Shown here: positions 6,364 through 30,848 of the stretch, one piece after another
Layout: each line of letters opens with the position of its first letter
Position numbering within the stretch: the first letter of the stretch is position 1
Assembly: GCF_000237865.1 (NCBI RefSeq)
Contig: NC_017459.1
Coordinates: forward strand, 2,190,001-2,222,000
DNA: 32,000 bases
Direction: 5' to 3'
Source: Haloquadratum walsbyi C23
GTDB lineage: Archaea; Halobacteriota; Halobacteria; Halobacteriales; Haloferacaceae
Notes under the pieces: generated by a model
What the model saw: the letters and a program-made list of their open reading frames with translations, nothing else
What the model was told of the DNA's origin: nothing
The model's database searches: none
Program-made: the position numbers and the translations under genes

Positions 6364-6437
6364 GTGGTAGAATGCAAACCCTACTATCACAACTGCGGTC
6401 GAGAATAATCGCTCTTCAACGCCGGGAGGATATCAAT
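6157..6437 (+). mobile_element. right-end (RE) remnant of an IS1341-type element: tnpB 3' fragment plus terminal non-coding segment
   Basis: Downstream of the remnant stop, tgcaaaccctactatc and gggaggatatcaat (6424-6437) match tgcaaaccctaatatc and ggaggaggatgtcaat on the minus strand after the intact tnpB. Similarity is lost after about 6437-6441. Confidence 0.6.
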
Positions 6438-8061
6438 CTGAGAGGTCAATATGTGTGGTAACATCAGTGACCGTTCCAACACCCTTTGATTGTCCCTCAC
6501 GGAATACAAAGCGTTGTCCCTCTTCTACAAGATATTGGCGAAATTTGAATTCGACAGTTGCAGTACCGGTATCGCCAGGAAGGAGTTGCCCCTCGTCTGG
6601 ATGAAAGATAACAGCTTCACTTGCTGTTTGAAGATGAACAACGGGTTCATAGCCATCACGAATTCGTGTCGGGTGATTGAGTACCATTATTTCAGCCTCA
6701 AATGAGCGAACAGCGGTTGGATCATTTTCCGCTGGAAGCAGTGCCATCCCGCGTTCAATATCTTCCTCATCGACACCTTTCAGTGCAATGCCAACGATTC
6801 TTCCTGCTTCCGCGCGGTCGACACGATGATAATGCATTTCAATTGAACGCACTTCGACATCACGGAATGAGCCATCCGGCATTGGACCAATTTGTAGTTC
6901 ATCACCAGCCTCAACACTACCAGATCCAACAGTCCCTGAGGCAACAGCACCAACACCAGTCACGGAGTATGTACGGTCAATGTACATCCGAAAATCATCT
7001 CGATCATGATTGGTTGTTTTCGGGAGAGACTCAAACATTGAGTCAAGCTCATCAAGCCCAGTCATCGTCACTGCACTTGTTCGGAGGATCGGGACAACTG
7101 AGTCACTTAGTTCATCAACAGCCGCCGCAACCCCATGTCGCTCGATCAAAAACGGCGTTCGACCGACATCGCGGAGTAATCGCTCAACAGCACGCTCAAC
7201 CTCAGCAACGCGGTCGGTATCAACCATATCAACCTTTGTGATTGCAACAACCGTCGGAAGTTCCATTGCAAGTAGAATGCCAAGGTGTTCACGTGTGGTC
7301 TTTGTCGGACCATCATCAGCAGCGACGACAAGAAGTCCATAATCAAGTCGCTGCCCAACAAGTCCACGGATAGTTGTTCGAAGCCACGGTTCATGTCCTA
7401 CTGTGTCAACAAACGAGACAAGACGGTCTGACTCTTCGACAACCCGGGCTCGGTCTGATTTCCGATGTGGATTATCCATATGGACGGTGTCAGTGTCAGT
7501 AAATCCATACACAGCATATGAGAGGTCAGCTGAGAGACCGCGCTCAACCTCATGTGGTTGTACATCAAGAAAACCACGGGTCTGCCCCTGCCCATCATCA
7601 GCAGTCCCAGTCACGAGTGAGCCAACAAGCGTCGACTTTCCATGATCAACGTGACCGGCTGTCCCAACGACAATATGATCATCGTCGACATTGAGCATTG
7701 ACCCCTCGTTGAGAGTTGCAACCCCAACACGCCCACGCTCTGTTTCAGTACCAACTCCCCAGGTTTCAACATCCTCAATATGTGCTCCAGCCTCTTCGGC
7801 AAGCACAGAAAGAACATCCATTGACTCTGAGAACGCATCCGCAGAAATGCCGGCAATACCGCCATCGTCGGTCACACCGATAACGTACATCGCGGTGCCA
7901 TCGCCTGAGAGTATTCGATGGCGCAACTGTGCTGCGAGACTCTCAAGTCGTCCATCTGCGAGGTGTACCTCACGAGAGAGTCGTTCTTTGAACTCAACGT
8001 TTCCTCCCTCCTCCTCGCCGCGATCGAGGGCCGCCTCAAGAGCGGCCCGATCCGCGCTCAT
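6433..8061 (-). CDS. GTPBP1-like translational-type GTPase (EF-1alpha/EF-Tu domain architecture)
   Basis: G1 GHVDHGKST, G3 DTVGHE and G4 TKVD are followed by beta-barrel domains. The start is assigned to the ATG at 8061 (MSADRAALEAALDRGEEEGG). The 72 upstream codons of the tracked ORF (CLCLWLCC...SQSQS) are translated simple repeats. Confidence 0.85.
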   Translation of the reverse strand: MSADRAALEAALDRGEEEGGNVEFKERLSREVHLADGRLESLAAQLRHRILSGDGTAMYVIGVTDDGGIAGISADAFSESMDVLSVLAEEAGAHIEDVETWGVGTETERGRVGVATLNEGSMLNVDDDHIVVGTAGHVDHGKSTLVGSLVTGTADDGQGQTRGFLDVQPHEVERGLSADLSYAVYGFTDTDTVHMDNPHRKSDRARVVEESDRLVSFVDTVGHEPWLRTTIRGLVGQRLDYGLLVVAADDGPTKTTREHLGILLAMELPTVVAITKVDMVDTDRVAEVERAVERLLRDVGRTPFLIERHGVAAAVDELSDSVVPILRTSAVTMTGLDELDSMFESLPKTTNHDRDDFRMYIDRTYSVTGVGAVASGTVGSGSVEAGDELQIGPMPDGSFRDVEVRSIEMHYHRVDRAEAGRIVGIALKGVDEEDIERGMALLPAENDPTAVRSFEAEIMVLNHPTRIRDGYEPVVHLQTASEAVIFHPDEGQLLPGDTGTATVEFKFRQYLVEEGQRFVFREGQSKGVGTVTDVTTHIDLSD

Positions 8062-8275: not shown

Positions 8276-8389
8276 ATCGACAGATTGGCTGTACGATGAG
8301 AGCCGGTTAATTGGAGTAACCTATGGGAAGCACGCGAATCACCGCTGAACGGGAGTCACGATTGTTGTCCTGAGTTACAAAAAGTGAGA

Positions 8390-8706
8390 CTCTCCCGCGG
8401 TTGAAGACCTGTCTCTTACCCATAAGTTCGTGGAGTCGTAACCGGACGTTTCAGACGCTGTCAGAGGTATTTTGAACGCAGAAAATCGAGGAGAGAGGCG
8501 ATTCAAACAGTGATATTGGCTGTGGGGGTTATAGAACGCCGGTAATCAACTCCACTACGATTGTTCCAAAGAGGTATTAAATCTGTAGATACCGAGGATT
8601 TCAGTTGTGCTCGCCGATCCCGATCCCGTTCCGCTAAAGTCTTGACTCGAGTTGTGGGTAAGAGATAGGGTTGAAGACGCGGGTATTCTCCTTGTACTCT
8701 ATAACT
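8390..8706 (-). mobile_element. solo LE-type palindromic unit (IS1341/PATE-like end), split by MITE copy 1
   Basis: With 8409-8678 removed, the sequence reads ...cccgcg gttgaaga cgcggg tattctccttgtactctataact. This is about 35 nt homologous to the unit upstream of the intact tnpB (20816-20830 plus 22771-22802). Confidence 0.5.
8409..8668 (+). mobile_element. MITE copy 1 (260 bp) with IS4/Tn5-like termini
   Basis: Termini are ctgtctcttaccca... and ...tgggtaagagatag. It is flanked by a perfect 10-bp direct repeat ggttgaagac (8399-8408 and 8669-8678). The interior is collinear with copies at 20831-21089 and 30590-30848. Confidence 0.85.
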
Positions 8707-8730: not shown

Positions 8731-9249
8731 TCACTCAGAGAGATGTTCATATGCCTGATTGACGCGTTTAAATTTCTCTTCATCACCCGTTTCGGTATCA
8801 GGATGAGTCTTTTTGACCCGCTCGCGATATGCACGCTTGATCGTTGTTTGATCAGCATCTGAGTCAACTCCGAGCGTTTGATATGCCTCTTGAGTGCTCA
8901 ATCCATTCGAGTGTCGTGGTGTTCGATTACTTCGCCCACGAGTGTATCGAGTCTGTCGGTGATTTGTTGCACGTCGTCCTGGTCCAGATCCCTCAAAACT
9001 ACCTGGTCCACGGGTGGCATTTCCAGACTGATCGACGCCGCGACGACTCCTTCGCTGCTGGGTTGCACCTGCGCGGAGTGTTTTCTCGATGCGTCCGCTC
9101 GCATGATACCACAGGAGGTATGTTGCTGCTGCAAAGGGAACAGCAACAATAAGTAAGAATATTTGATAAACGAATGAAAGGATGGTTAATAGGGTCGTAA
9201 TACCTGCAAAGACAGCTGCGATTCCGACAACGAGGCGATCTGCGTCCAC
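8731..9249 (-). CDS. J-domain (DnaJ-like) membrane protein
   Basis: 172 aa. The N-terminal hydrophobic helices are followed by a basic linker. The C-terminal J domain reads EAYQTLGVDSDADQTTIKRAYRERVKKTHPD and includes the HPD motif. Confidence 0.8.
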   Translation of the reverse strand: MDADRLVVGIAAVFAGITTLLTILSFVYQIFLLIVAVPFAAATYLLWYHASGRIEKTLRAGATQQRRSRRGVDQSGNATRGPGSFEGSGPGRRATNHRQTRYTRGRSNRTPRHSNGLSTQEAYQTLGVDSDADQTTIKRAYRERVKKTHPDTETGDEEKFKRVNQAYEHLSE

Positions 9250-19290: not shown

Positions 19291-19480
19291 ATTGACATCC
19301 TCCTCCGCGTGAACGCGGAGGAATCCCACGGCACCACACCGCTTGGGTTGGGATATTAGGGTTTGCAGTCTCCCACCTCTGCCCGAGGTTGGAATCCTCG
19401 GGAAAGGTCATAAAGGTAGACTCCGGGCTGTGCCAACCAGCCGGTACTCCTATCCCCACCCAAATCGGGTGCAGACTCAG
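19291..19480 (-). ncRNA. predicted omega RNA (reRNA) scaffold region of the TnpB element
   Basis: By analogy with characterised TnpB systems, the guide RNA scaffold overlaps the tnpB 3' end and runs to the RE. A 9-bp hairpin tcctccgcg-tgaa-cgcggagga lies at 19301-19322. The 5' extent is not determinable by eye. Confidence 0.3.
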
Positions 19481-20720
19481 AGTTACTTTGATTAATGTCG
19501 AGACGGATATTCTCCGCCCCATTCACATCAGCGTTGAACGCATCCCCGTCGCCGTCGCCGTCGCCGTGTTCTTCACACACGTACAAGCCACGCTCAACAC
19601 GCTGACTCTCGTCTTCTCTCCCACAGACACAACACGTCTTGCTTGTGTCGCGCTCTGACACTTCTCCGACTTCGATTCCCTCACCCTTCGCTTTGTATTC
19701 GAGGATGTTCGAGAACCTGTCGAAGGCCCACCCGTGCAAGTCAAGATTACCGTGCTTCCCCCAGTTCTTCGACTCACCGTTACCGTTGTCGTCTTCGCGG
19801 ACACCAGCGAGTTTTCCGATGTTGATGCGCCCAACACCGTTTTCGATGCATCGCTGAACGATGTGTGTCGCCAAAGAGTGGAAAAAGTGGGTTCGGCGCT
19901 CCGACCACTTCGCATGGAGTCGAGTAGCCCTGTCACCACCAGAGTCATCACACTTGGCGATTTCTTTCGGGAAGTAGTAGCCGTCCTGTTTCAGGCGGTT
20001 GCCGGGGTAGAGGTCGGCTTCCTCGGTGCTGTACGAGATAGCGGCGAAGTTACAGATACCGAGGTCGATACCAGCAGTCTCGGTGCCGGGCGCGGTGGGT
20101 GTCTCGATTTCGTGCTTGCAGACGAGGTGAAGTTCCCACCGCTGTTTCGCCCTATCGTAGACTGTTCGAACCTGTTGGAGGTTCTCGACGGTGACACCGG
20201 GTGCGGTTTCGTACTCAATAAGGATGTATTCCCACGCTTTCGGGTGTTGTTTGTGATTCGCGCCTTTTGAGAGTCGAACGCGGTTGTTCTTGGTGTCGTG
20301 TTTGATGCCGTTCTGCTTCCACGTTACTGTTGAACGAGGGTGTTCTTCGTGGACGCGGCGACCCTGTTGGTCGTAGTAGTTTTTTTTGCGGTAGCCGGGC
20401 GGATTCGCTCGACTGTCAGACTTCCTCTTGCCGTACCACGAGTTGAAGGCTTCAGCGAGTTCCTCCAGAACGCGCTGACTGGATTGACTGTGCAATCCCT
20501 TGTAGTTATTGTGAGTCTTCAACTCGGTTTTGAGGTCGCCGTGGTCGGGTATCTCGCCCGTGGCTTCCCACTGTTGTCGAGAGTGGTAGTTGGCGACATT
20601 CCAGAGTTTCGATGCACTCCACCCATGCCGGTCAAGCGAGTCCGCTACCTGTGCGTGGTTGCAGATCTTCGCTTGATGGGTTCGGTGGACTTCCAACATT
20701 CTGAACGTCTGTATAATCAT
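19356..20720 (-). CDS. tnpB: TnpB (IS1341-type RNA-guided endonuclease, OrfB family)
   Basis: 454 aa. RuvC-I is AGIDLGICN. The zinc finger reads CCVCG...YVCEEHG. RuvC-III is FNADVNGAENI. An alternative start is Met8 (20699, MLEVHRT), with gtataaat about 25 nt upstream. Confidence 0.9.
   Translation of the reverse strand: MIIQTFRMLEVHRTHQAKICNHAQVADSLDRHGWSASKLWNVANYHSRQQWEATGEIPDHGDLKTELKTHNNYKGLHSQSSQRVLEELAEAFNSWYGKRKSDSRANPPGYRKKNYYDQQGRRVHEEHPRSTVTWKQNGIKHDTKNNRVRLSKGANHKQHPKAWEYILIEYETAPGVTVENLQQVRTVYDRAKQRWELHLVCKHEIETPTAPGTETAGIDLGICNFAAISYSTEEADLYPGNRLKQDGYYFPKEIAKCDDSGGDRATRLHAKWSERRTHFFHSLATHIVQRCIENGVGRINIGKLAGVREDDNGNGESKNWGKHGNLDLHGWAFDRFSNILEYKAKGEGIEVGEVSERDTSKTCCVCGREDESQRVERGLYVCEEHGDGDGDGDAFNADVNGAENIRLDINQSNSESAPDLGGDRSTGWLAQPGVYLYDLSRGFQPRAEVGDCKP
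19547..19568. repeat. hexanucleotide tandem repeat (cgtcgc x3 plus partial) inside tnpB, encoding GDGDGDGD
   Basis: Direct reading. The remnant copy at 6157-6363 has HGDMCNAD where this copy has HGDGDGDGDAFNAD. Confidence 0.8.
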
Positions 20721-20830
20721 TTATACTCGCTTCAGTATTAACGTTTGGTGTTTGAGAATGGTGGAATATCCCGTCCAGCCATCGGCGGTGGTTGCGGAGG
20801 AGTTGTCGGATTCATCCCGCGCCTGAAGAC

Positions 20831-21089
20831 CTGTCTCTTACCCACAACTCGAGTCAGGATTTTAGCGGAACGGGATCGGGATCGGCGAGCACGACTGAAA
20901 TCCTCGGTATCTACAGTTTCAGCACCTCTTTGGAACAATTGTAGTGAGCTTGATTACCGGCGTTCTGTCACCCCCACAGCCGATATCACTATTTGAATCG
21001 CTTCTCGCCTCGATTTTTTGATTCAAAATACCTCTGAGAGCGTCTGAAACGTCCGGTTACGACTCCACGAACGTATGGGTAAAAGACAG
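20831..21089 (-). mobile_element. MITE copy 2 (259 bp), inverted relative to copies 1 and 3
   Basis: Termini are ctgtctcttacccacaac... and ...tgggtaaaagacag. It is flanked by gcctgaagac at 20821-20830 and 21090-21099. The interior is nearly identical to copy 3; the ORF-track peptides across the two copies are identical. Confidence 0.85.
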
Positions 21090-21099
21090 GCCTGAAGAC

Positions 21100-22760
21100 C
21101 TGTCTCTTACCCATAACTCAATACTAGAGGGTAATTTCGACCAAATCAGGCATGAAAAGAAGAAATCAATCAAATTTCCATCAGTATCTGCCCAAGATTA
21201 GAGAAGTATCCATGAAGCCGCTTGGAAAGCTCAGCTGAACTCGTTATTTCGGCGGGTTCTGCTGAATGAGCCGCGAAGCGCGCTCATTCAGTACCGAGTT
21301 CGTATCCTTCAGCCCACATGCGTAGCTTCTGGAGTCCTTTCCACATCGTCTTCCACCCTGGTGGCGGATCTGAACCACGATCAAGATAACCGCCGAGTTT
21401 AGCCACGCTCACTGCGTATGATTTCCCATCTTGACCGCTCAATTCTGGAAATTTCGTTTCCAGAATTGTGCGCTCTGCCTCACTCAGCAGGACCGCCGGA
21501 GATACTGAACTATCATCACGAGCAAGTTCTCGTAGCTCCAGAACTTTCCACGCGATCACTGAATACATGCTCAACAACACTTCCATCCGCTCCCAAGTCT
21601 GCAGTTGCCGTTCTTCGATGTTACAGCCACTCTTGAGCACTTTATGCCAGTCTTCAATTCGCCAGCGGAGACCGTAATAGTCGATGAGTGTCAGCGTTTC
21701 CTCAAACTCTTCGACCGATTCAGTGGTGAGCAACACCCACTGAATCGGGTCGTCATTTTCACCGACCTCGTCAACTCTCACGACATTCACCTCGATTGAA
21801 CCCTCTTGTTCAGGATTATTCTTTGGCGCGCGCAACTCACACGTTCCAGTGGCTATCGACAACTCCGCTGTTCTCGCTTCGCGCCCACCTCCCTGTTGAA
21901 TCTCGATTGTTTTGCGACCTTGCTCGGCAAGGTCGCTGCTCCAGTCAAAGAGTTTTCCAGGTTCACCATCATCAGTCCAAATCCGTCGGTTTTGACTCGC
22001 TCGGATGATGAAGCCAGCATTTTCCATCTCTCTGGTGACTCCCTCGTAGAACGCGAATGAATCTGCGCCTCGGTCATGGATAAATAGCGGGCGGATATCG
22101 TCGGCAAGCCAGTCTCTGGCTTGCCTGTCGCCACGGCTCCATTTCTCATGTTCACTGTCAAGTTGAATCGGCTCTGCTTTGCCGTTGGCATCGTACTTCT
22201 CATCGGCCTGCTGGTCCTCGATCAGCGGCTGCTGATCGATGACCCCAGTCATTCGATGGGTCCGTGGATTGATTCCGATCGTGGAGTGAAGCTTGATACC
22301 TTCGAGATCCATTTCAGAGTTGCCAATATCGCCGAGACCCTCCTTGGAGGGGTGTCTCGGAAACACGAGTTCGGTGGTATCGGAGACAATCAGGAGTTCG
22401 TCTGACCGACTCACTCTTGATTGCTGTTGCTGCTTGTGAGCAGAGAGAACCTCGTTGGGATCCACACTCTCATTATCGCAAAATCGGTATGTAGCTTTTG
22501 TGGACGCCCAGTCTCCGCAGGCAGCAGGGATGGACTCGGCAGGTGAGCTGCCGAGTTCATCCCCAAGTTGTACTAGTCGGTCACTCAGGCGCTTGTCTCC
22601 AAACTCGGCTGATCGAAACTCCGTTTGAATCCATCCTGAAACATCCATGTCACACAGCTGCCCATCTTCATCGAGTTCTGGCTTCCAACTCCGTGAGCGA
22701 CGCCCCATCTACCAATCTTGGTTCGTCTACTCTTGTATTACACTTGTGGGTAAGAGACAG
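21100..22760 (-). mobile_element. IS4-family (IS50/Tn5-like) insertion sequence, 1661 bp
   Basis: Imperfect terminal inverted repeats are ctgtctcttacccataactcaatac and (reverse complement) ctgtctcttacccacaagtgtaatac. The first 10 nt equal the Tn5 mosaic end CTGTCTCTTA. The element is flanked by gcctgaagac at 21090-21099 and 22761-22770. Confidence 0.9.
21284..22708 (-). CDS. IS4-family DDE transposase (Tn5 Tnp-like)
   Basis: 474 aa. The N-terminus FGDKRLSDRLVQLG...ATYRFCDNESV is like the Tn5 Tnp DNA-binding region. DDE context is IVSDTTEL and FIHDRGADSF. The Y(2)R(3)E(6)K signature appears in YGLRWRIEDWHKVLK. Confidence 0.9.
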   Translation of the reverse strand: MGRRSRSWKPELDEDGQLCDMDVSGWIQTEFRSAEFGDKRLSDRLVQLGDELGSSPAESIPAACGDWASTKATYRFCDNESVDPNEVLSAHKQQQQSRVSRSDELLIVSDTTELVFPRHPSKEGLGDIGNSEMDLEGIKLHSTIGINPRTHRMTGVIDQQPLIEDQQADEKYDANGKAEPIQLDSEHEKWSRGDRQARDWLADDIRPLFIHDRGADSFAFYEGVTREMENAGFIIRASQNRRIWTDDGEPGKLFDWSSDLAEQGRKTIEIQQGGGREARTAELSIATGTCELRAPKNNPEQEGSIEVNVVRVDEVGENDDPIQWVLLTTESVEEFEETLTLIDYYGLRWRIEDWHKVLKSGCNIEERQLQTWERMEVLLSMYSVIAWKVLELRELARDDSSVSPAVLLSEAERTILETKFPELSGQDGKSYAVSVAKLGGYLDRGSDPPPGWKTMWKGLQKLRMWAEGYELGTE

Positions 22761-22986
22761 GCCTGAAGACGCGGGTATTCTCCTCGAAATTCTATAATAA
22801 CTCTGAGCATTCGCTTACACTGAATATCACAATGCAGTGATTGACCGGTACAGTACACAATGTGGCATAGTCGGCTTGTGACGTCGCCAAATGCTCATAT
22901 TGATACATTGTTAATATGATGAGGGAATATGTGTAATACCAAGAGACATACTCACGGTGCTATTGAGTTCCGCTATAACTAATACA

Positions 22987-27052: not shown

Positions 27053-27240
27053 TTAATTCTGATCGTATAATATCTTAATCATTACTCACTCTGCATATAG
27101 TTCCTCACGATCAGATAGCCTGCTACGTTGATTCAATAAACTATCAAAATATAAGATGTCATGGGGATATTACGATATCCATTATTTGAAAGAAGAGGTC
27201 AAAAATAAATATATTGATATTTCGGGTATTTGATAAAATT

Positions 27241-27272
27241 CTGCGCTTCAGGGCAGAGAGGATGTCAAACGG
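27241..27272 (+). mobile_element. solo RE-like fragment of an IS1341/PATE-type element
   Basis: ctgc-gcttcagg-gcag is followed by agaggatgtcaaac. The 11-mer gaggatgtcaa is identical to the minus-strand sequence next to the RE hairpin of the intact tnpB element (19290-19300) and close to ggaggatatcaat at 6425-6437. Confidence 0.4.
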
Positions 27273-30589: not shown

Positions 30590-30848
30590 CTGTCTCTTAC
30601 CCATAAGTTCGTGGAGTCGTAACCGGACGTTTCAGACGCTCTCAGAGGTATTTTGAATCAAAAAATCGAGGCGAGAAGCGATTCAAATAGTGATATCGGC
30701 TGTGGGGGTGACAGAACGCCGGTAATCAAGCTCACTACAATTGTTCCAAAGAGGTGCTGAAACTGTAGATACCGAGGATTTCAGTCGTGCTCGCCGATCC
30801 CGATCCCGTTCCGCTAAAATCCTGACTCGAGTTGTGGGTAAGAGACAG
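30590..30848 (+). mobile_element. MITE copy 3 (259 bp), no target-site duplication
   Basis: Termini are ctgtctcttacccataag... and ...tgggtaagagacag. The flanks are cttggtaatc (left) and accttgacga (right) and do not match. GC content jumps at 30849. Confidence 0.85.

Follow-up and report, generated by a model that had tools for sequence, protein, structure and literature searches.

Haloquadratum walsbyi carries an insertion sequence (IS), ISHwa2, and a MITE (miniature inverted-repeat transposable element), HqIRS35 or 'Duanwu'. ISHwa2 measures 1661-1668 bp, its inverted repeats are 19/20 and its target duplication is 10-11 bp long; for HqIRS35, which is present in 34-36 copies per genome, the figures are 241-266 bp, 16/19 and 10 bp (Dyall-Smith et al. 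2011, PMC3119063, Table S8). The two are related at their termini alone, and strain-specific insertions of HqIRS35 were tabulated as 260+10 bp (PMC3119063). It was also reported that 30 of 31 nested Haloquadratum MITEs lie in palindrome-associated transposable elements (PATEs) or IS605-type elements, and that in two cases HqIRS35 occupies the identical PATE position in opposite orientations (PMC3119063). The SMR-A repeats (HqIRS42/43/55) are inserted within near-terminal palindromes of PATEs and IS605-type transposons, which they were proposed to inactivate (PMC3119063). In this contribution, we analyse a stretch of 32,000 nucleotides of H. walsbyi C23 (contig NC_017459.1, positions 2,190,001 to 2,222,000; the window, G+C ~47%) in which a MITE, here called copy 1, splits a GC-rich palindrome at one locus (locus 1), while a second MITE, copy 2, and a full-length IS split a sister palindrome at another (locus 2).

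Symmetric targets are familiar from IS10 (GCTNAGC), Tn5 (GNTYWRANC) and IS231A (GGG-N5-CCC, in the ends of Tn4430), the last of which preferentially inserts in the ends of another transposon. IS1397 and ISKpn1, of the IS3 family, reportedly insert in the loops of repetitive extragenic palindromic (REP) sequences, or palindromic units, of enterobacteria, so that the palindrome is split between the flanks. All copies of ISRm22 (IS4 family, IS4Sa subgroup) of Sinorhizobium meliloti lie in REPs, on the axis of palindromy (Tobes & Pareja 2006, PMC1525189; PMC2266710). The targets of ISRm22 are GC-rich and symmetric, and some copies have hybrid, non-matching direct repeats that were attributed to recombination between copies (PMC1525189).

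Our reading of locus 1, to which we assign a probability of roughly 0.78 and which rests on comparison of sequences, is that MITE copy 1 is a non-autonomous derivative of the Tn5-like ISHwa2 lineage that was placed on the dyad of an IS200/IS605-type palindrome by a preference common to the whole family. The stem arms CCCGCG (8394-8399) and CGCGGG (8678-8683) were read directly, the last G of the 5' arm (8399) being at the same time the first base of the duplication. The termini of copy 1, with first bases CTGTCTCTTACCCATAAGT and last bases AGTTGTGGGTAAGAGATAG, are complementary at 16 of 19 positions and form terminal inverted repeats at 8409-8427 and 8650-8668. As an earlier note on this DNA had claimed, deletion of 8409-8678 restores the hairpin, CCCGCG-GTTGAAGA-CGCGGG, followed by TATTCTCCTTGTACTCTATAA. 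The chance of a perfect 10/10 duplication flush with inverted repeats is ~1e-6 per element, and at least six of eight stem pairs occur at only 0.74% of random centres in related DNA, so that a centred insertion with a perfect duplication is beyond chance.

The inserted family is identified from locus 2, where the order is CCCGCGCCTGAAGAC (20821-20830), MITE copy 2, GCCTGAAGAC, IS, GCCTGAAGAC, then GCGGGTATTCTCCTCGAAATTCTATAA. The transposase of the IS is encoded by a single open reading frame (ORF) of 474 aa (21284-22708) with intact DDE and YREK motifs; it contains PF14706 (Tn5-type N-terminal DNA-binding domain, 2.8e-22) and the DDE domain PF01609, scores 414.7 bits against NCBIfam NF033590 (cut-off 160) and, with 20.5 bits, stays under the cut-off of 26.7 for the Tn5 dimerisation domain PF02281. 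It aligns with the Tn5 transposase structure 1MUS (E 4.6e-37) over D, D, E and Y-R-E-K, with the spacing Y-(2)-R-(3)-E-(6)-K retained, and in this alignment SDTT, HDRGAD and YGLRWRIEDWHKVLK are the counterparts of D97, D188 and Y319-R322-E326-K333 of Tn5. The IS has the ends CTGTCTCTTACCCATAACT and CTGTCTCTTACCCACAAGT and a 10-bp duplication, i.e., about one helical turn, and by its motifs, homology, single ORF, short inverted repeats and duplication length 21100-22760 is a Tn5/IS50-like member of the IS4 family. Compared with database proteins, the transposase shows 98% identity to one from a metagenome and, to the best match listing NCBI among its sources, 83%.

The similarity between MITE and IS is confined to the terminal 17-19 nt, the MITE interior being unrelated to the IS; the MITE has the inverted repeats of a resident IS, the same 10-bp duplication, no transposase and three copies in the window (92-99% identical), and the ISHwa2-type element at 21100-22760 is the presumed source of transposase in trans. 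In size, inverted repeats and duplication length copy 1 matches the published description of HqIRS35/'Duanwu', to which type it would belong; likewise, the window elements as a set agree with the ISHwa2/HqIRS35 pair in sizes, inverted repeats and duplication length. For this pair of elements see also Chen et al. 2009. Both the pair and the tendency of MITEs to lie in PATEs or IS605-type elements had already been published in 2011 (PMC3119063), by which the earlier note is refined.

The hairpin had been compared in that note with REP loops, and the ~35 nt of homology next to it were given as flank. The hairpin is, however, no free-standing REP-like unit; it is the subterminal palindrome of an IS200/IS605-type (TnpB) element or of its terminal-only remnant, and the homologous segment is the left-end tip of such an element up to its TTATA target. 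At locus 2 the target is, judging by its ends, the left end of an ISHwa21-like TnpB element, which measures 1561 bp once 1940 bp of nested insertions are removed, a size typical of ISHwa21-type members. Its TnpB ORF (19356-20720, minus strand; PF01385 5.5e-28, PF07282, NF040570 191 bits) starts ~95 nt inside the locus-2 hairpin, and with TnpB, no terminal inverted repeats, two subterminal palindromes and ends of published type the element has the properties of the IS1341-type members of IS200/IS605. The left-end palindrome is reconstituted by excision and matches unoccupied copies; the right-end palindrome (19301-19322) carries neither MITE nor IS. The right end GGGATTCCTCCGCGTTCACGCGGAGGAGGATGTCAA (19292-19327) equals the published ISHwa21 3' end except in the loop (reverse complement, TTCA vs TGAA), the latter end and the TTATA target of HqIRS56 being given in Table S9 (PMC3119063).

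A metagenome scan with the reconstituted site and its right flank as query (CCCGCG-NN-TGAAGACGCGGGTATTCTCC) found 17 unoccupied copies of the palindrome with the left-end tip. Ten of them have the inner flank of locus 2 (...GTCGGATTCAT) and TTATA adjoining the left end, six are ~46-bp terminal-only mini-PATEs composed of TTGACATCCT, the palindrome and the left-end tip (for example TTGACATCCT-CCCGCGCCTGAAGACGCGGG-TATTCTCC..TATAA), and one (L127) has an ACTCT tail as at locus 1. The flanks of all 17 diverge directly past TATAA, which therefore marks the element boundary next to the TTATA target; the same divergence excludes that the TTATAGA flank is an archaeal TATA box with the hairpin at the 5' end of a transcript. 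By the same comparison the target at locus 1 is a putative ~46-bp terminal-only IS200/IS605-type remnant, or mini-PATE, in which the left-end tip, the palindrome and TTATA are present, the right-end tail AGAGTCTCAC has diverged from AGGATGTCAA, and the left boundary (8384) is uncertain. The reconstituted hairpins have folding energies of -8 to -11 kcal/mol as single-stranded DNA, and an Rfam scan of the window gave no match.

Table 1. Features of the two occupied palindromes, of related elements in the window and of two loci outside it (positions are those of the window unless a locus is named)
Feature	Position	Strand	Basis or remark
Left part of putative ~46-bp mini-PATE: right-end-like tail GTGAGACTCT and CCCGC of the 5' arm	8384-8398	-	boundary 8384 uncertain
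Target-site duplication, left copy GGTTGAAGAC	8399-8408	no strand	closing base pair and 8-nt loop; 0 mismatches/10 bp
MITE copy 1 (HqIRS35/'Duanwu'-type by description), 260 bp, non-coding	8409-8668	+	termini, size, duplication
Target-site duplication, right copy GGTTGAAGAC	8669-8678	no strand	read directly
3' stem arm GCGGG and left-end outer segment TATTCTCCTTGTACTC of putative mini-PATE	8679-8699	-	segment also in 17 unoccupied copies
TTATA flanking target pentanucleotide at left-end boundary	8700-8704	- (read on minus strand)	flank divergence, Table S9
ISHwa21-like IS1341-type (TnpB-only) IS200/IS605 element	19292-22792	-	second hairpin target in left end
Right-end subterminal palindrome (T)CCTCCGCG-TGAA-CGCGGAGG(A) of TnpB element	19301-19322	-	dG -11.2 kcal/mol, z -4.6
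Locus-2 duplication GCCTGAAGAC, first of three copies	20821-20830	no strand	read directly
MITE copy 2, 259 bp, inverted vs copy 1	20831-21089	-	read directly and alignment
Locus-2 duplication GCCTGAAGAC, second copy, common to MITE and IS	21090-21099	no strand	read directly
Full-length Tn5-like IS4-family element (ISHwa2-type), 1661 bp	21100-22760	-	profiles, structure match, size
Locus-2 duplication GCCTGAAGAC, third copy	22761-22770	no strand	read directly
3' stem arm GCGGG, left-end outer segment TATTCTCCTCGAAATTC and TATAA (TTATA target, minus strand)	22771-22797	-	
MITE copy 3, 259 bp, no duplication, no hairpin context	30590-30848	+	alignment to copies 1-2
Salinibacter ruber loci	L143 628-1110; L142 1400-2950		related IS at hairpin dyads

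The generality of palindrome targeting was assessed by a target-blind scan in which the IS end CTGTCTCTTACCCAYAAST alone, a query that carries no target information, was compared with species-representative genomes. At least 120 loci were found, and all junction counts given here and below rest on the matches listed, of which 116 are haloarchaeal, from 22 named genera and metagenome-assembled genomes, and four are chance bacterial matches. The junction flanks are very uniform and consist of a C-rich 5' arm, a four-base loop, three bases of the 3' arm and the IS end, the loop being TTCA, TGAA, TAAA or TTTA in 109 of 162 unique junctions. The 10-bp duplication comprises three stem pairs around the four-base loop, and the 8-nt loop in the window is the same kind of palindrome with mismatched inner pairs. 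The outer context is of four kinds that match the outer and inner sides of the left and right ends of IS605-type elements (for example ...TTAC-AG..GAGGAGAAAGCC; ...GGATTCATCC; ...TTGACATCCTCC). Random positions in the same loci served for comparison: three of three complementary outer pairs in the last 10 nt were present in 51% of 164 unique flanks vs 2.2% at random; T at -7 combined with A at -4 and two or more C at -15 to -13 in 122 of 162 unique flanks (75%) vs 0.8%; and this pattern together with at least two of three complementary outer pairs in 64% of flanks vs 0.16%. Twenty-six unique empty sites could be reconstructed, and 18 of them have at least six of eight stem pairs centred exactly on the duplication, vs 0.74% at random. 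These figures cover 100 distinct duplications and 79 distinct 5' stems. A TnpB-like ORF lies beside the junction in only 9 of 117 loci (iterated profile search), and therefore most targets are non-coding, PATE-like remnants. The earlier note had named as evidence against itself a situation in which free palindromes abound and copies elsewhere never use them; free ones do exist (the 17 unoccupied copies and 19301-19322), yet about 75% of the 162 junctions lie in such palindromes, and the note is not refuted on this point.

The same arrangement was found in a BLAST sample of haloarchaeal plasmids, where all four full-length copies lie inside such palindromes, three of them with a perfect 10-bp duplication; in the fourth no left end was located. 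The ISHwa2-type family is often multicopy within a genome, e.g., on Natribaculum breve plasmids, and Salinibacter ruber as well as MSBL1 archaea have homologues of ~60% identity. The two copies in Salinibacter ruber (transposase ~60% identical) have 10-bp duplications centred on GC-rich palindromes, one target being the right end ...GAAGCCCCGCCC-GGAA-GGGCGGGGTTCTTCAC just downstream of a Y1-transposase (IS200-type) gene. The second Salinibacter target is the dyad of a terminator-like hairpin, CCCCACCC-TTAC-GGGTGGGG, with a T-run after it. About 25 of 52 paired MITE/IS copies have no matching duplication (L002, L003, L009, L034, L067, L080, L094 and others). In many of these pairs each flank alone ends in a palindrome half, and in several the outer flank of a left end lies on one side and that of a right end on the other; such hybrid flanks would fit recombination of two MITEs in both ends of one IS605-type element, with deletion of its TnpB core.

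According to the explanation that we favour, MITE copy 1 would descend from a Tn5-like (IS4 family, IS50-type) IS of the ISHwa2 lineage of which only the ~19-bp ends were kept, and for its mobility it would depend in trans on a transposase such as the 21284-22708 product. Integration would follow ordinary cut-and-paste DDE chemistry, with two strand transfers staggered by 10 bp and symmetric about the dyad of a GC-rich palindrome that IS200/IS605-type (TnpB/IS1341-type) elements use as a subterminal hairpin for their own single-strand transposition. The site preference would belong to the transposase family as a whole rather than being a local accident. A two-fold-symmetric transposase dimer may read a ~20-bp symmetric duplex, CCC-N5-T-N2-A-N5-GGG, with C/G next to the T and the A, and the palindromes would supply that site; this would extend the target consensus of IS10, Tn5 and IS231, and extrusion of a hairpin or cruciform could help without being required. 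The split hairpin, which is needed for excision and integration, would leave the host element disabled, while the incoming element would gain an abundant, harmless landing site.

How the palindrome is recognised is the question on which the most serious alternative bears. We lean towards recognition of a duplex symmetric ~20-bp site by the transposase in preference to structure-specific recognition, in which the transposase or a recruiting host factor would read an extruded hairpin or cruciform, or a single-stranded hairpin at a fork, and cut at a fixed distance from the stem regardless of loop sequence; the latter we regard as possible but doubtful. Structure recognition is favoured by dyad-centred insertion across 79 stems and more than 10 loops, by centring that is kept despite inner-pair mismatches (locus 1; L033, L079, L098), by the stability of the reconstructed single-strand hairpins (-8 to -11 kcal/mol) and by the Salinibacter loops GGAA and TTAC, which lack T4 or A7 of the duplication and are nevertheless hit at the dyad. 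IS200/IS605 hairpins are known, moreover, to form in vivo during the transposition of those elements themselves. The duplication, however, has a consensus of its own, S-N-C-T-N-N-A-G-N-S within CCC...GGG, in which T4 is conserved at 90% and A7 at 92%, C3 and G8 at ~71% and the CCC...GGG at ~80%, and T4 and A7 recur at four of the six sites that have perfect duplications and are not palindromic. Duplex DNA is the substrate into which Tn5-type transposases integrate, and a symmetric sequence preference of theirs was reportedly described by Goryshin in 1998 (cited in PMC1525189). Measured from the 6-bp stem, the cuts do fall at identical positions at the two loci of the window, and the duplications do differ, as the earlier note observed, but the loops differ at only two of eight positions (GT vs CC, with TGAAGA common to both); these positions are variable throughout the family and T4 and A7 are kept, which makes the note's step from different loops to recognition of geometry a weak argument.

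The tandem at locus 2 bears on the same question. There the same 10-bp frame of the sister palindrome was used twice (20821-22770), the only tandem of this kind among ~160 junctions, which suggests that the second element entered a copy of the duplication made by the first, into a hairpin that had by then been split. The 5' stem arm was then 260 or 1661 bp distant from the 10-mer that was hit, which counts against structure recognition, and since the second insertion used the 10-mer of an already split palindrome, an intact hairpin appears, as this tandem suggests, to be dispensable for insertion.

Besides the Salinibacter loops, several points count against the explanation that we favour. All the evidence is comparative, and the targets are homologous to one another, so that conserved flanks and stem covariation may reflect constraints on the target family rather than reading by the transposase. 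About 25% of junctions lie outside such palindromes, which speaks for a preference and not an absolute requirement. Sites with the 8-base consensus are palindromic in 7 occupied cases and weaker in 3, vs 11 and 12 among unoccupied ones (Fisher p 0.28). The locus-2 tandem could result from recombination between two differently occupied copies. No cultured H. walsbyi is among the matches on which the junction counts rest, and an empty allele of locus 1, sought in metagenomes, was not found there, the unoccupied copies being paralogous.

It is improbable that survivorship alone explains the pattern, i.e., that insertion is random and copies persist in neutral DNA such as dead transposon ends. Haloarchaeal genomes are gene-dense, PATE and IS605 remnants are neutral and a quarter of junctions lie elsewhere, all of which would agree with survivorship. 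Selection, however, cannot account for a duplication that falls exactly on the dyad at 18 of 26 reconstructed sites, or for 90% T and A at fixed positions, and in intergenic DNA and in PATEs of 400-600 bp hundreds of positions that are equally neutral go unused; because the centring is base-exact, pure survivorship is insufficient.

The two loci of the window would not be independent if the MITE-in-hairpin composite had been copied from one to the other, whether through duplication, through gene conversion or because the host element was mobilised; the homology of the right flanks speaks for this (GCGGGTATTCTCC..TCTATAA). This homology, given as ~35 nt in the earlier note, is present on the right side only; the left flanks are unrelated. 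The duplications GGTTGAAGAC and GCCTGAAGAC differ, the orientation of the MITE relative to the common right flank is opposite, copies 1 and 2 are ~92% identical, i.e., diverged by ~8%, and a split hairpin should block IS605-type mobilisation. By these differences the loci were hit independently, as the earlier note had held for a second MITE insertion into such a hairpin at an identical position, and copying between them is very unlikely. Least probable of all is a repeat-induced mis-join that put copy 1 where it is. In its favour, of the window proteins looked up by exact sequence three are not on record and one occurs on ENA metagenome contigs alone, and copy 3 has no duplication and lies at an abrupt change in G+C. 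For copy 1, however, both junctions are exact, the excised site is a known element, and the perfect 10-bp duplication would not arise from a mis-join.

Several other features of the window and of the scan were recorded. MITE copy 3 is 98-99% identical to copy 2, and at its position the G+C content climbs from ~48% in the preceding kb to 63% in the last kb of the window, a setting that points to recombined MITE copies, to a border of foreign DNA or to a chimeric join in the assembly. An ORF of 172 aa at 8731-9249 (minus strand) contains, at the very C-terminal end, a J-domain whose match breaks off at position 54 of the 63 in the profile; only 27 nt separate the end of the ORF from the TTATA boundary of the putative locus-1 mini-PATE, and so it may be a truncated DnaJ-like gene. 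An unoccupied, decayed mini-PATE-like sequence, GAGAATAATCGCTCTTCAACGCCGGGAGGATATCAA, overlaps the stop of a GTPase gene (6396-6436), and a solo right-end-like relic, TCTGCGCTTCAGGGCAGAGAGGATGTCAA, also unoccupied, lies at 27232-27269. In Ktedonobacter racemifer (L091, ~7050-7100) a chance match to the IS-end motif abuts a perfect palindrome with a 19-bp stem, GTGATGTGTGCTGGCAGCC-TGC-GGCTGCCAGCACACATCAC, and lies beside it, not at its centre.

The observation is real and, as an instance of a transposon of one family lodged in one of another, was largely to be anticipated. It is of importance in showing how very sharp the natural target preference can be in a close relative of Tn5 transposase, an enzyme in wide use: of the sampled junctions, 75% lie in palindromes of a single kind, ~20 bp long, which amounts to an enrichment of roughly 100-fold. 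The preferred targets are functional hairpins of IS200/IS605-TnpB elements, which are studied as ancestors of Cas12. With this system one can ask by what means a DDE transposase recognises targets that are symmetric or structured; it accounts for a part of transposon-in-transposon nesting in haloarchaeal genomes and offers a natural route by which TnpB elements would be inactivated. In annotation, split half-palindromes beside these MITEs should be read as interrupted IS605-type ends or PATEs. More speculatively, the ISHwa2 lineage may be a cross-domain hyperparasite (Halobacteria and Salinibacter) of IS200/IS605-TnpB elements that finds their end-hairpins by structure and not by sequence, makes its cuts at 5 bp from the dyad on each side and thereby puts out of action TnpA-dependent mobility as well as, at right ends, the TnpB guide-RNA unit; we offer this as a tentative idea that we consider rather unlikely.

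In the literature searched, no dyad-centred 10-bp rule for the Tn5-like ISHwa2 lineage was found, and no target consensus, spread over 22 genera or conservation in Salinibacter is stated for it there. In the part of the 2011 Haloquadratum paper used here, the dyad-centred rule is stated for the SMR-A repeats only, not for ISHwa2/HqIRS35, and ISHwa2 is described as nearly confined to Haloquadratum, whereas 22 named haloarchaeal genera are represented among our matches (PMC3119063). The SMR-A repeats differ from the MITE of the window in that they are ~110 bp long, insert without duplicating their target, are not known to have a transposase and carry inverted repeats unrelated to those of any IS (PMC3119063).

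The likeness to IS1397 and ISKpn1 that was drawn in the earlier note is apt in behaviour only: those elements reportedly have an IS3-family OrfAB with a frameshift, a circle intermediate and a 3-4 bp duplication, whereas the element in the window has a Tn5-like transposase and a 10-bp duplication and is not of their kind. IS10, Tn5 and IS231A resemble the window element in having IS4-family transposases, duplications of about one helical turn and two-fold-symmetric sites, but their preferences are weaker and not tied to a long GC-rich palindrome, and the duplication in the window is one of 10 bp. ISRm22, also of the IS4 family, inserts on the palindrome axis and has hybrid repeats like those of the duplication-less MITE/IS pairs found here; it belongs to another IS4 subgroup, is bacterial, makes 6-bp repeats and targets REPs, which are associated with REP-associated tyrosine transposases, whereas here the targets are the ends of TnpB-carrying IS200/IS605 elements. 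The precedents for what is seen at locus 1 are the targeting of PATEs by mobile elements in Haloquadratum, described in 2011, and the insertion of ISRm22 in REPs, described in 2006.

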